60,683 bases of DNA from Deltaproteobacteria bacterium (GCA_020850995.1 JADZDP010000155.1:1-60683), one strand, 5' to 3'. Positions 52,269 through 57,847 are shown, counted from the stretch's first letter. Notes: generated from the letters alone by a model not told the origin. Numbers and translations: made by a program.

Positions 52269-52931
52269 ATGGAATCGAGTCTCGCTGCGACCAATGGCGC
52301 GCGCAAGTCCGTGCTCCGTTGGGCGGCACTGGCGATCGCCTTGGCTCTCCTCGTCGCGGCCGTCGCCCTGTTGGTCCGACGCGACGAGGTCGAGCGAGCT
52401 GAGGCTTTTGCCCCGCGCCGGGACGATGAGGCCGGCAGCGCGGGAACGCCGCACTTTGCTGGCGGAAGGGAAGTTGCGCCCGCTGTGAACGACCCCGGCG
52501 GAAAAGCCGAGGCAGTGCGAACCCTCTTCCCGGAACGCGCGCTTGTCGACGGCATCATCCGGACAGGCGCCGGCTCCGCCGGCGTGCTCGAGTCAGCGAA
52601 TCGCAGGGTGTTGCTGGTGCCGGGCGAGCACATCGAGATCCGCCTTCGCCCTTCAACATCGGGCGCTGCTGTGACCGTGCGTGCCGACGATGGCGGCGTC
52701 ATCAACGGGCTTCAGCTGCAGCCCCAGGTCGAGCTGCCCGCGGCGACGACCAGCTTCGCCTTCGCCGCTGGCGGCCATCGTGGGCTCTACACCGTCACGA
52801 TTACTCGCGGTGACGAGCTGCAAATTCTGGAAGCGTGGGTCGGCAACGAGGCGCCAACCGGGCGCGCCGGACCACCACGCCAGATCGAGCTACCTCGGAA
52901 CATCGTCGCTGACACCTCGGAGCATCCATGA
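52269..52931 (+). CDS. membrane-anchored hypothetical protein, translationally coupled to the RHS gene
   Basis: N-terminal TM helix LRWAALAIALALLVAAVALLV. ATGA overlap with the RHS start. Confidence 0.45.
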   Translation: MESSLAATNGARKSVLRWAALAIALALLVAAVALLVRRDEVERAEAFAPRRDDEAGSAGTPHFAGGREVAPAVNDPGGKAEAVRTLFPERALVDGIIRTGAGSAGVLESANRRVLLVPGEHIEIRLRPSTSGAAVTVRADDGGVINGLQLQPQVELPAATTSFAFAAGGHRGLYTVTITRGDELQILEAWVGNEAPTGRAGPPRQIELPRNIVADTSEHP

Positions 52932-55900: not shown

Positions 55901-57847
55901 GACTACGACGACGCGGGGCGCCTCTTGTCGATCGCGCACACGAGCGGCATGACCACGATCGCGAGCTTCGAGTACACCCATGACGACGTCGGCCGCCGCG
56001 CGAGCATGGAGAGCACGCTTCCTGGCCTGGCCGCGCGCATGGACGACTACAGCTACGATGACATCGGCCGGCTCGTCGCCGTCGAGTACGGAGTCACGCG
56101 GGACGTCGCCTACAGCTTCGACGAGGTCGGCAACCGGGTGAACGTCGACGACTCCGTTGCCGGAGTGACCGACTACACCGCGAACGAGCTCAACCAGTAC
56201 ACGATCATCGAGCCGCCGTCGGCGTCGCTGGAGCTTGCCTACGACGACAACGGCAACCTCAGCTCTGACGAGGCGTGGGCCTACCAGTACGATGCCGAGA
56301 GCCGGATGATCTCGGCTGAGAGCTGCACGCGCCGCATGACGACGCTCTACGACGGTCGAAACCGCGCGGTGCTGCGCACGGAGTATGAACCCGAGCAGCC
56401 AGGGGTCGTCATCAGCCAGATCTACGGCGCCGGCGGCAACACGGGCTCGACCCTCGCGAACGACTTCGTCGAGCTGCATAACCGCGCCACCTGCCCGGTC
56501 TCGCTCGCCGGCTGGTCCATCCAGTATGCGAGCGCCACCGGTACCAGTTGGACGAAGACCAACCTGAGCGGCAGCGTCGCAGCAGGCGGCTTCTACTTGA
56601 TCCAGCTTCATGCCGGTGCACAGGGCGGGGATGCGCTGCCCACTCCGGACGCGACGGGCAACACGAACCTCAGCGCCAGCGCAGGTAAGCTCGCGCTGTC
56701 GAGCTCGACATCAACCCTGAGCGGCACCTGCCCCTCGGGAAGTGCGGTCGTGAATGTGGTCGGCTACGGCTCCTCCGCCAACTGCTTCACGGGGTCTGCG
56801 CCCGCACCTTCGCCGGCGTCGGCGACGGCGTCCATCAGCCGCGGCGGAGGTGCCTGCGTCTTTGGTGAGGATTCGACCGACTTCACTTCCGGCACCGCAG
56901 CGCCGAGGAACAGCGCCTCGACAGCGTCAGCCTGCGACATCTGGCAAGAAGCGGACCGATACGCGCTCGTGTACTCGGGGTGGAACCTCATCGAGGAATA
57001 CGAGCCCCTCGACGTGCTTCGGGCCCGGTACGTCCACGGACCAAACACGGACGAGATCCTGGTGCGATCGGATGGCAGCAACGACGTCTACCTCCACCAT
57101 GACGGGCTCGGCAGCGTCGTGGCGATCACGGACGGCAGCGGCAGCGCGGTCGAGAGCTACTCCTATGACGTCTACGGAGCCGTCGCCGCCTACGACAGCG
57201 GCGGCGATCCTCTGCCGTCGCCGGCAAGCTGGAACCGGTTCCGCTACACCGGGCGGGAGTGGCTGGAGGCGGCCGGCGTCTACGACTACCGCAACCGCCA
57301 CTACTCTGCGGACACGGGGCGTTTCCTGCAGGTTGACCCGATCCGCTTCTTGGGCGGAGATCCAAACCTGTACGGGTATGTGCTGGGGGATCCGGTGACC
57401 GGCATCGATCCGACGGGAACCACAATCAACTGGAACGAGCTTTCGCCTGATGTTGGCGCCGCGCTCGAACAGATGCAGCTCACGCCGGAGGTCGGATTCA
57501 TCATCGAATACCTCGACACGACGAATTCGGTCATCACGATTCAGGAAGTGCCACCCGGAACGCATCCCTCTGGGGCGGAGACAGGCGTCGACAAACTGAA
57601 AACGACCCTGAACGGGGGCCTGGTGCACATCGACGTCGAAATCTGTTACGACGACGCGAAAGCGTATGCTGAGCTGCTCGGCCTATACGCAACCCTCGGG
57701 CAGCTACTCATCCATGAGCTTGCTCATGCTTACCTGAGTGCGGTGAATCTCGATGCCGGTCGCTCGTCTCCGTCACCAGCGGAGAGCGATGCGTTCGCGA
57801 TCGAGACCGAGAACATGCTCCGCGATCGGGCAAGGTATGGACACTAG
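52928..57847 (+). CDS. RHS/YD-repeat polymorphic toxin with inserted lamin-tail domain and C-terminal HExxH metallopeptidase-like toxin module
   Basis: Sec signal peptide. >25 YD repeats (YTYDANGN, YAYDARGR, YEYNDDGF...). LTD-like insert (VVISQIYGAGG...NDFVELHN...LAGWSIQY). RHS core ending DPIRFLGGDPNLYGYVLGDPVTGIDPTG. Then ~140 aa containing LIHELAHAY. Confidence 0.9.
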   Translation: MTTRRSHSLSLLVGFGFVVLAVAASPSRAQSCTSDNDCDFPSTTCVLGTCEPYISSCANDSQRNPVNSTCPVPSQQPTTGSAAIPNSSAGTSLSPAVGDPVSADQGNLIREVKDIETFGNAPITFGRIYNSRTLSFNADYWDFGNQQTWQHNWNYEMRQLSSTTFGFFDIKVRYPDGREHNFKATDEGGEQLAPAVDNGDRLYRWPGETVGYTMITPQAWEFHFQRVSSPKFRMLEVRDGQGAYWTLSHDANGKITKIENPYGRFIEITRGTVSGVECITSVATSDGREVSYGYDTWSPTNKPVLVAVDYPGTEAASYTWVGADSETTGRPLLASAYDPMDGGPNAVMGFEYNYDAIFDFGNGSYLVTGVILREVHPDTEVEVLSLPLGPGEHPQILEGSGAEIHRYFQNGLLAKVADAEGRVTSFTRTDDGFGCLESMTEPNGAVTTYTRDFANRPLTVTDAYEHVRTYEYNDDGFLTSLTDEEGNTTTYTRDSGNRVTRVDYPDLTFETWTYDANGNTLTHQAASGGVTTYSYYEEEEEGGLPGDLKTVTDPLDGEVIYTHDDAGRVLTKTDQLGHATSYAYDARGRVVGVEFADATTLAFTYDEFGNPIELVNEFEEAWTLTYNEFQRLASIANPLEGTTTFEYGLAPDDTSTAYVGKIARATQASGRVIELTYGGDERIATKVVAPGTADEATWSWSYNAAGEVETITDPLENVTAFEFDLLHRLASTIDPLMNETTRGYDDVGNLVLVTLPDATTITKAYDSMRRLTSRTDALELTTTFGYEDGNLTTITDAKSQVHAYDYDALDRRTRLTFPDESFEEWSYDAAGNLTSYTTRAGQVRTHVYDLRDREISRDWSDGTADILKSYDAAGRLLTLSTGVLAQGSLSSIFTELGYSYDAAGRLLSETSDLSSSDADFSAFTTGYDHDEGGQVSEIAYSSGPVVSFVRNGHGAIVEVWTGGTGPLAEYSYDLAGRRDGKTLENGTETAYDYDDAGRLLSIAHTSGMTTIASFEYTHDDVGRRASMESTLPGLAARMDDYSYDDIGRLVAVEYGVTRDVAYSFDEVGNRVNVDDSVAGVTDYTANELNQYTIIEPPSASLELAYDDNGNLSSDEAWAYQYDAESRMISAESCTRRMTTLYDGRNRAVLRTEYEPEQPGVVISQIYGAGGNTGSTLANDFVELHNRATCPVSLAGWSIQYASATGTSWTKTNLSGSVAAGGFYLIQLHAGAQGGDALPTPDATGNTNLSASAGKLALSSSTSTLSGTCPSGSAVVNVVGYGSSANCFTGSAPAPSPASATASISRGGGACVFGEDSTDFTSGTAAPRNSASTASACDIWQEADRYALVYSGWNLIEEYEPLDVLRARYVHGPNTDEILVRSDGSNDVYLHHDGLGSVVAITDGSGSAVESYSYDVYGAVAAYDSGGDPLPSPASWNRFRYTGREWLEAAGVYDYRNRHYSADTGRFLQVDPIRFLGGDPNLYGYVLGDPVTGIDPTGTTINWNELSPDVGAALEQMQLTPEVGFIIEYLDTTNSVITIQEVPPGTHPSGAETGVDKLKTTLNGGLVHIDVEICYDDAKAYAELLGLYATLGQLLIHELAHAYLSAVNLDAGRSSPSPAESDAFAIETENMLRDRARYGH

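Follow-up and report, generated by a model that had tools for sequence, protein, structure and literature searches.

A lamin-tail domain nested in the shell of a probable Sec-exported RHS toxin with a putative zincin tip

Results

We analysed a 60,683-bp contig (JADZDP010000155.1), taken whole and hereafter called the window, from an NCBI metagenome-assembled genome (MAG; GCA_020850995.1) labelled 'Deltaproteobacteria bacterium', and centred the analysis on the gene at 52928..57847 (+), whose product (MCC7073298.1) is publicly named only 'lamin tail domain-containing protein'. Our reading, to which we give a probability of about 60%, is that this protein is a polymorphic toxin of the RHS (YD-shell) kind, exported through Sec and encoded on an integrative island that is linked to a tRNA-Arg gene in a myxobacteria-like MAG. 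Two of its features are new: a lamin-tail domain (LTD) nested in the last loop of the RHS shell, an arrangement found in two lineages so far and unlisted in the polymorphic-toxin survey, and a minimal, almost unsampled tip of predicted zincin type that is remotely allied to NleD and HopH1. The remainder (RHS chassis, autoprotease core, tip swapping, Sec export, metallopeptidase payload and island location) is standard polymorphic-toxin biology.

An intact RHS gene with an autoprotease core

The gene is a single uninterrupted frame that starts with ATG, ends with TAG and encodes 1639 amino acids, at exactly the coordinates given by a preliminary description made from the DNA. The motifs quoted there were found at residues 1178 (NDFVELHN), 1193 (LAGWSIQY), 1220 (GGFYLIQ), 1494 (DPTG) and 1594 (LIHELAHAY). 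It had also proposed a profile hidden Markov model scan for RHS repeats, and RHS_repeat (PF05593) matched 12 stretches of the protein (E 1.3e-75; Pfam), alongside YD_repeat_2x (TIGR01643) in 8 stretches (E 1.8e-58; NCBIfam) and partial RHS_core matches. The shell-wall array also carries repeat families D1-D4 and D7 at the DNA level. The Rhs-associated core (TIGR03696) was recovered at residues 1413-1497 (65.4 bits vs a cutoff of 32.5; NCBIfam), and the variable tip sits immediately after it. Within the core, the autoprotease motifs read DPIRF (D1470), which is shared with two relatives described below (P0002 and P0033), and IDPTG (D1494); the DPxG...DPTG pair described earlier was thus right in its second half, at residue 1494, but not in its first. 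Repeats, a core with aspartyl autoprotease motifs and an exchangeable tip are all present, and the protein is an RHS/YD-repeat polymorphic toxin, a nature that its public name misses. Codon differences in a strain variant (19 synonymous vs 11 non-synonymous) point to purifying selection.

A Sec signal peptide in place of type VI loading domains

By sequence inspection, residues 1-29 form a Sec (SPI-type) signal peptide (MTTRRSH, then SLSLLVGFGFVVLAVAA, then SPSRA), with a positive n-region, a 16-17-residue hydrophobic core (15-mer Kyte-Doolittle mean reaching 2.5) and an A-x-A-like cleavage site predicted between SRA and QS. No lipobox was found in the signal peptide by inspection, and a SitA-like outer-membrane-exchange lipoprotein route was set aside on that ground. 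The cysteine-rich module that follows carries six cysteines at residues 32-70, including C-x5-C-x6-C-x4-C (CTSDNDCDFPSTTCVLGTC). This motif resembles the myxobacterial Cys-rich repeat, and the same motif type occurs in both open reading frames (ORFs) downstream of the RHS gene.

Neither PAAR, even at E<=10, nor another loading domain was matched at the N-terminus, and no type VI secretion system (T6SS) family was found among the 20 large ORFs scanned in the window. A PAAR or other spike-loading domain and neighbouring T6SS, VgrG or chaperone genes mark T6SS Rhs effectors, and none of these appeared at the N-terminus or among the scanned ORFs of the 60-kb window; the earlier call of a signal peptide without PAAR or T6SS markers stands, and the layout of the n-, h- and c-regions is classical. 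From these features we infer the delivery route of the toxin; RHS toxins that depend on Sec form a class already established (PMC3482391, Table 1).

A lamin-tail domain occupies the last loop of the shell

The Pfam LTD profile (PF00932) matched residues 1157-1260 with 43.3 bits against a gathering score of 34.3 (E 5e-11), so that the lamin-tail module recognised by eye in the preliminary description is recovered by its own family profile; the excised module (residues 1157-1340) scored 45.3 bits against the same cutoff. It was modelled at a predicted local distance difference test score (pLDDT) above 90, with the Ig-like beta-sandwich fold of the lamin tail, and keeps the conserved residues and cysteines of the family. 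Profile matches and structural models together show a complete, independently folding LTD (an Ig-like beta-sandwich) spliced between the last two YD hairpins. Three of its cysteines are conserved in 101-115 of 123 LTD modules, and the fourth is probably conserved too, but is offset in the alignment. Taken with the six-cysteine N-terminal module, the LTD cysteines argue for folding in an oxidising, extracytoplasmic compartment, which agrees with the signal peptide.

At the position of the LTD, the close but LTD-less relative P0033 has an 11-residue loop (TQKGVQYFMNP), and the domain therefore replaces an inter-hairpin loop and splits no hairpin. The earlier statement that the LTD interrupts an RHS repeat accordingly needs qualifying: the domain is inserted in the repeat array, but no YD hairpin is broken.

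A search with residues 1100-1500 returned 523 relatives, nearly all of which cover the LTD only (~45% of the query) or the RHS core only (~38%). The LTD-only relatives are 'extracellular nuclease'-type proteins, many of them from Polyangiaceae, Acidobacteriota and Gemmatimonadota. A single relative, P0002, spans 93% of the query, and its LTD lies at the identical site (…RRVYEWTMPH meeting VVISQIY… at one junction, …PRNGASTAQTCNRW meeting VLTENIALFYDDWNLVAE at the other), the insertion point being kept at 50% identity to the RHS protein. P0002 comes from an unrelated, lower-GC organism (its contig is more AT-rich than the window, roughly 48% GC by eye) and has a different tip, made of a transmembrane (TM) segment followed by DUF6973. 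The same insertion point in an unrelated organism, under another tip, indicates that a shell bearing the LTD works as a chassis and can be reused.

The RHS repeats of P0002 run on upstream across a frameshift, which lies ~50 nt before its called start and upstream of the LTD (locus L002:3-1939; Logan ERR14039107) and could be a sequencing error or the mark of a decaying copy; a transposase fragment lies downstream of the gene on the same contig.

We also scanned 185,579 species-representative genomes and the JGI metagenomes for LTD loci, fetching as much as 8 kb of DNA to either side; in all of the best 160 LTD loci, RHS sequence was absent from the flanks. One locus (L095) seemed to cover LTD and RHS alike (query residues 27-389) and was rejected, since piecewise tblastn finds no RHS there. 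Among the papers searched, none joined 'lamin tail domain' with Rhs. The architecture is thus unusual, as had been proposed: of the proteins found, P0002 alone shares it, and the best 160 LTD loci are all LTD-only. The two RHS-embedded LTDs are sisters in a neighbour-joining tree, which favours a single origin, although the tree is star-like and carries no support values.

The C-terminal tail resembles a divergent zincin

The tip comprises the last 142 residues, matching the ~140-residue tail with LIHELAHAY reported earlier, and its HExxH is kept in its only homolog. HELAH (residues 1596-1600, nt 57713-57727) is the only HExxH of the RHS protein. H1596 and H1600 are predicted ligands and E1597 the predicted catalytic residue, with E1619 or E1628-N1629 downstream. 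Composition-preserving shuffling gave an HExxH by chance in 1.2% of tail shuffles and 1.0% of shuffles of the homolog.

That homolog, P0123, was the one full-length relative of the tail (E 3.5e-4, ~32-35% identity) when 1.84 billion cluster representatives were searched exhaustively with phmmer; a word-indexed search with the tail had returned a near-identical fragment only. P0123 has its HExxH in the same aligned columns and retains PxGTHPxGAxTxV, HELxHAY and E-S…E-N-x-L-R…Y. One more match, 27 residues long within a protein of 5419 residues, was taken as chance, the same GTHPxG motif weakly matching DAHP synthase too. Renewed searching with a profile of the tail and P0123 (A1) gave nothing further, neither that profile nor the tail alone found anything meaningful among PDB sequences, and the tail had no match in NCBIfam. 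On the contig of P0123 (L003), the frame extends upstream as '…VNGRDPTGLVFDWGS…', the tail homolog follows '..RDPTGL', and a transposase gene precedes it. Since its frame continues upstream into an RHS-type junction, with a transposase before it, P0123 appears to be an RHS-type tip itself, probably orphaned. The tip is polymorphic in both directions, the LTD shell occurring also with the DUF6973 tip of P0002 and the tail homolog behind another RHS junction in P0123.

Peptidase_M91 (PF14891, the family of NleD) was the sole Pfam match of both the tail and P0123, in the same register across the HExxH. The signature HExxH…[DE]N is present in aligned columns (HELAH…ETEN in the tail, HELVH…FEN in P0123; HELLH…SEN in NleD). 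'HExxH, [DE]N' is the signature of the Tox-HopH1 clade, which includes NleD and is listed with RHS repeats and signal-peptide ('T2SS') delivery (PMC3482391).

An AlphaFold model of the tail shows a small sheet with helices, a long helix bearing the HExxH and a last helix with conserved glutamates, which is the zincin pattern of a mixed sheet with helices in which the HExxH helix is followed by a helix carrying a glutamate ligand. Its closest structural neighbours include botulinum-type light chains, lethal factor and GtgA. The lack of a third histidine at the YbeY/metzincin spacing, together with the conserved Glu and Glu-Asn, favours a gluzincin-type peptidase. We therefore file the tail as a putative enzyme that would work like a HopH1/NleD-type zincin, its formal M91 membership falling short of threshold. 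A zinc-protease tail had been proposed from the start, and the Pfam match that is common to both tail sequences, though below threshold, and the model, though of moderate confidence, agree with it. The same description had staked its case on a metalloprotease fold around an HExxH that is not incidental, and on recovery of the LTD by its profile; the predicted architecture (pLDDT 63.6) is zincin-like, and neither a tail lacking that fold with an incidental HExxH nor an unrecovered LTD was found.

Two small ORFs follow the toxin gene

Two unannotated ORFs lie downstream, and the first, ORF A, overlaps the RHS stop codon by 11 nt. ORF B has a GC content at third codon positions (GC3) of 0.74 (locally 0.78-0.85), moderate codon periodicity and an unconvincing ribosome-binding site; the ORF that contains it, from 58369, gave weak NCBIfam matches to Myxo_Cys_RPT (TIGR04201), a family matched by none of the other sequences with the cysteine motif, and to TraA.

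A PAAR-RHS-Peptidase_M91 effector is followed by a 110-residue single-TM protein (PMC8867033). Similarly, the PA0261/Tpi immunity family protects against the VgrG2b/Tpe1 metallopeptidases; its members have conserved cysteines, are disulfide-dependent, need DsbA, and reach the envelope through a signal peptide, a lipobox or an N-terminal TM helix, and the C-terminal toxin of VgrG2b acts in the periplasm (PMC6899460). The topology of ORFs A and B matches that of the immunity proteins of M91/VgrG2b-type toxins (PMC8867033, PMC6899460). The tail (GC 58%, GC3 0.70) departs in composition from the RHS body (GC 65%, GC3 0.86), with a break near the core-tip boundary. That the tail and ORF A (GC 61%) both differ from the body is as expected for a tip-plus-immunity cassette. 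By analogy with these systems, our preference is for an antibacterial protease that would act in the periplasm, and ORF A would be its immunity protein.

The gene lies on a probable integrative island

The left 50 kb of the window (GC3 0.88-0.97) reads as a myxobacteria-like chromosome, with genes for Ser/Thr kinases, TPR proteins, a chemotaxis cluster, RNase E/G and others of this sort. A tRNA-Arg gene and a large serine recombinase follow (Table 1), and the lower-GC DNA to the right of the recombinase holds a 220-residue ORF, the RHS gene, ORFs A and B, a pair of DUF433 and DUF5615 genes, and repeats. The tRNA, the recombinase and the lower-GC DNA together indicate that the RHS operon lies on an integrated island, of which the tRNA-Arg gene is likely the integration site and left boundary.

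Table 1. Features of the RHS locus and its surroundings (window coordinates)
Feature	Position	Strand	Basis or remarks
tRNA-Arg (CCG)	49889..49965	+	ARAGORN; GC and GC3 drop to its right
Large serine recombinase	49900..51453	-	Pfam Resolvase, Recombinase, Zn_ribbon_recom; 3' end extends into the tRNA, which lies on the other strand
Membrane-anchored protein, 220 residues, no assigned function	52269..52931	+	Called by two pipelines; stop overlaps the RHS ATG (ATGA)
RHS polymorphic-toxin gene, 1639 residues	52928..57847	+	ORF; MCC7073298.1; RHS_repeat, LTD, DUF6531, YD_repeat_2x, Rhs_assc_core
Sec (SPI-type) signal peptide, residues 1-29	52928..53014	+	Sequence inspection
Cys-rich N-terminal module	53015..53137	+	Six cysteines
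DUF6531, N-terminal domain usual in RHS proteins	53219..53473	+	Residues 98-182; PF20148, 31.2 bits vs cutoff 24.1
RHS/YD repeat array (shell wall)	53474..56395	+	About residues 183-1156; RHS_repeat, YD_repeat_2x, partial RHS_core, DNA-level repeats
Lamin-tail-domain module, residues 1157-1340, inserted where a loop joins the last two YD hairpins	56396..56947	+	
Last shell strands and Rhs-associated core	56948..57418	+	TIGR03696; autoprotease motifs; core at residues 1413-1497
Putative C-terminal toxin domain, 142 residues, divergent HopH1/NleD-like gluzincin	57419..57844	+	Begins straight after DPTG
Candidate immunity ORF A, 128 residues, unannotated	57837..58223	+	N-terminal TM helix, Cys-rich C-terminal part
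Candidate ORF B, unannotated	58414..58707 (ORF 58369..58707)	+	Lipoprotein signal (…LCLAAC), then two Cys-rich repeats

The 220-residue upstream protein had no Pfam or NCBIfam match. Variants of the pair formed by its gene and the RHS gene were found on 17 short contigs from several sequencing runs (93-96% identity), and Sec-dependent RHS toxins may have in this protein an accessory factor that has gone unrecognised. Scans for promoters and terminators near the RHS operon were uninformative.

Further observations concern the variants and the surroundings of the operon. One short metagenome contig (L001; ENA ERZ27258527 k141_114454, 907 bp) aligns with window positions 56905-57567 and 60560-60683; all 36 differences in its RHS piece fall within 56917-57179, and it is identical to the window from 57180 on, a pattern that hints at strain-level mosaicism near the core. 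The same contig (P0001/L001) was considered as a natural deletion linking the tail to position 60560 and rejected as a three-part assembly chimera, consisting of a sigma-54-type AAA+ fragment (its first 105 nt), an RHS core and tail variant, and the last 124 nt of the window at 100% identity, with a junction without homology.

The recombinase frame enters the tRNA-Arg gene by 66 nt, its last ~22 codons being the reverse complement of the tRNA; in the long form of this ORF (49900-52065, -), the Resolvase domain is preceded by an N-terminal extension of ~200 codons, which is probably untranslated. Directly downstream of the RHS region, the DUF433/DUF5615 pair (58788-59461, +) is a toxin-antitoxin-like module whose stop and start overlap. 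A ~180-bp segment (58726-58909), which includes the DNA just upstream of DUF433 and the first codons of that gene, recurs 890 bp further on at 59620-59799 (77-81% identity), where it forms a second, truncated start of DUF433. The right part of the island also has four copies of a 40-nt element, those at 59465 and 60494 among them; this repeat may be mobile or regulatory.

Elsewhere in the window, an 815-residue ORF (1930-4377, -) has a match to PF11978, the shoulder domain of the major vault protein (E 1.3e-16), and a weak one to a vault repeat; such a protein is unusual in a bacterial MAG. At 45151-48061 (-), an XPB/ERCC3-type helicase with a damage-recognition domain adjoins a DUF790 protein, which we take to be the XPB-Bax1 helicase-nuclease pairing known from archaea. 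Four large ORFs of 514-712 residues, whose coding signal is strong (GC3 0.88-0.94), gave no Pfam match at E<=1e-5 (47709-49847, +; 34535-36226, -; 6847-8391, +; 10993-12813, +).

Discussion

The preferred reading can be put as a mechanism. After Sec export, the shell would fold in the oxidising envelope and the core would cleave after DPTG, leaving a ~15-kDa metalloprotease retained inside the cocoon. The LTD would point outward and, as a binding module, fasten the cocoon to matrix or to the surface of a cell; the established LTD proteins of bacteria are either secreted or associated with the envelope. At a target cell, the protease would be freed and would act in the target envelope (periplasm), as the VgrG2b/Tpe1 metallopeptidase toxins do. 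The producer would be shielded by a small, envelope-exposed, disulfide-rich protein, for which TM-anchored ORF A is the best candidate and the lipoprotein ORF B the second. The translationally coupled upstream membrane protein would be an accessory factor, and the tail with the DNA downstream of it a swapped-in cassette, as is usual for RHS tips.

In Tc toxins, the beta-propeller of TcB is inserted in the shell. The RHS protein resembles TcB and the lectin-bearing RHS toxins in carrying a globular binding or gating domain within the repeat array while the shell is kept, but the inserted fold is here a lamin-tail domain and sits in the last inter-hairpin loop, right before the core. Membership of the Tc toxins themselves was considered for the RHS protein and rejected. 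Binding domains embedded among RHS repeats have been described before (PMC3482391, PMC13018210); those of lectin type include RicinB, discoidin and bulb-lectin, and the LTD is absent from that survey (PMC3482391). With LTD proteins such as the extracellular nuclease ExeM (PMC6085458), the toxin shares the same ~180-residue module (50-59% identity to many) and the setting of signal-peptide-bearing extracytoplasmic proteins; in ExeM-type proteins, however, the LTD serves hydrolases as an accessory domain, placed N-terminally or in tandem, whereas here it is nested in the fold of another domain.

The T6SS PAAR-RHS-Peptidase_M91 effectors (e.g. Salmonella Dublin SED_RS06335, PMC8867033) and the Tox-HopH1 clade (PMC3482391) likewise join an RHS shell and core to an NleD/HopH1-type HExxH zincin tip, with a small single-TM ORF directly downstream as candidate immunity gene. 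Where those proteins carry PAAR, this one starts with a Sec signal peptide, and its neighbourhood yielded no T6SS genes; its tip is also much shorter (142 residues) and divergent below the M91 threshold, and an LTD is embedded in its shell. These effectors, with Tox-HopH1 and Tox-MPTase1-5 (PMC3482391), show metallopeptidase RHS tips to be commoner than the preliminary description had suggested. VgrG2b and Tpe1 with PA0261/Tpi1 (PMC6899460) are toxins on a VgrG spike, delivered by T6SS, whose likeness to the present system is one of analogy rather than of demonstrated sequence similarity. Bacterial teneurin-like proteins also combine a Sec-type signal with a YD shell around a variable C-terminal toxin, have extra adhesion domains and a downstream immunity gene, and are enriched in Myxococcota (PMC13018210). 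They are defined by an FN-plug, an NHL propeller and a YD-shell, with LTD not among their described domains (PMC13018210). Pfam gave no NHL or FN-plug match in the RHS protein and only 23.4 bits for TEN_YD-shell against a cutoff of 50, and its N-terminal region is instead DUF6531, as in classical Rhs proteins.

Several results weigh against the reading of an antibacterial Sec-exported zincin toxin on a reusable LTD chassis. Peptidase_M91 scores were below the cutoff of 25 (tail, 18.9 bits, E 0.002; P0123, 13 bits, E 0.13). When the pair of tail and P0123 was aligned by hhalign with a pair comprising E. coli Sakai NleD and a 40%-identical plasmid M91 protein, HExxH fell on HExxH over 105 columns (E 4.7e-4), but at a probability of 32% and with very shallow profiles. 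The tail model was of moderate confidence (pLDDT 63.6; predicted template modelling score 0.61) and built on a two-sequence alignment, and Foldseek against the PDB gave nothing below E 0.02, its matches to YbeY (E 0.02) and lethal factor (E 0.036) being weak, although they point towards the same kind of fold. ORF A has weak codon periodicity (GC3 0.66) and no clear ribosome-binding site; PGAP and the Logan gene caller alike leave the 940 bp beyond the RHS stop codon without a gene; and no immunity family is listed for Tox-HopH1 (Zhang et al., PMC3482391). Finally, the RHS core is 54-59% identical to many LTD-less RHS cores vs 44% to that of P0002, and the tree and these identities together do not separate core swapping from a moving LTD cassette or from separate insertions in the history of the chassis.

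Part of this evidence could be turned to a toxin of the same architecture aimed at eukaryotes or distant prey (protists, fungi, nematodes), with the LTD as receptor binder, an NleD/botulinum-like protease cutting a cytosolic host protein, and no immunity gene. We hold this to be a serious though unlikely alternative; against it, ORF A overlaps the RHS stop codon and shows exactly the layout of the immunity proteins of M91/VgrG2b-type antibacterial toxins (PMC8867033, PMC6899460). The nearest structural and sequence neighbours of the tail are, admittedly, all host-directed proteases (botulinum-type light chains, lethal factor, GtgA, NleD/HopH1), a Sec signal is present while T6SS genes were not found in the window, and the silence of both gene callers downstream and the lack of a Tox-HopH1 immunity family on record fit a toxin that needs no antidote. 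A lone RHS cocoon, on the other hand, would have to get across a eukaryotic membrane; we know of no means for it to do so by itself, and to our knowledge Tc toxins require TcA. Decidedly unlikely is a self-contained, Sec-secreted AB-like toxin, whose LTD head would dock on a eukaryotic or prey surface and whose minimal NleD/botulinum-type protease would cut an intracellular signalling or trafficking protein, leaving an immunity gene unneeded. If true, it would represent an unrecognised class of myxobacterial anti-eukaryote or predation toxin, with a minimal, ancestor-like form of the zincins of clostridia and of type III secretion effectors.

The moderate confidence of the model also leaves room for another HExxH metallo-hydrolase in the tail, such as a YbeY-like metal-dependent RNase acting on nucleic acid, and nucleases are the commonest RHS tip class (PMC3482391). 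The YbeY triad is H-x3-H-x5-H, though, and the tail's HELAHAYLSAV has no third histidine, its next helix bearing the Glu and Glu-Asn of the gluzincin/Tox-HopH1 pattern (PMC3482391); as the only Pfam match of both family members is moreover a peptidase family, we regard this as very unlikely. It is highly improbable that the LTD insertion is a recent accident or a decaying, functionless chimera, and the gene an inactive remnant carried by a mobile island. In favour of this, such architectures are exceedingly rare, with two lineages found, the second example is frameshifted upstream of its LTD, and the island holds repeats and duplicated gene fragments. Yet the frame is intact over 1639 residues with a GC3 of 0.86, the LTD keeps its conserved residues and cysteines and is modelled at a pLDDT above 90, and an organism whose GC is very different retains the insertion point, with 50% identity. 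Synonymous changes are also in excess among strain variants, and the gene pair recurs across many samples.

RHS cocoons are modular delivery capsules, and how they find and enter their targets without a T6SS is poorly understood. That a shell accepts a whole 184-residue Ig-like domain in its last hairpin loop, and that this recurs with another warhead, points to the loop as a natural site for targeting modules, which is relevant to cell recognition by Sec-dependent RHS toxins and to the engineering of RHS- and Tc-like capsules. The 142-residue tail would be a minimal, nearly unsampled branch of the NleD/HopH1/botulinum-type zincins and, if active, would help to define the minimal catalytic core of the group. 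Together with the envelope-targeted Cys-rich ORFs, it could extend the periplasm-acting metallopeptidase toxins beyond the T6SS.

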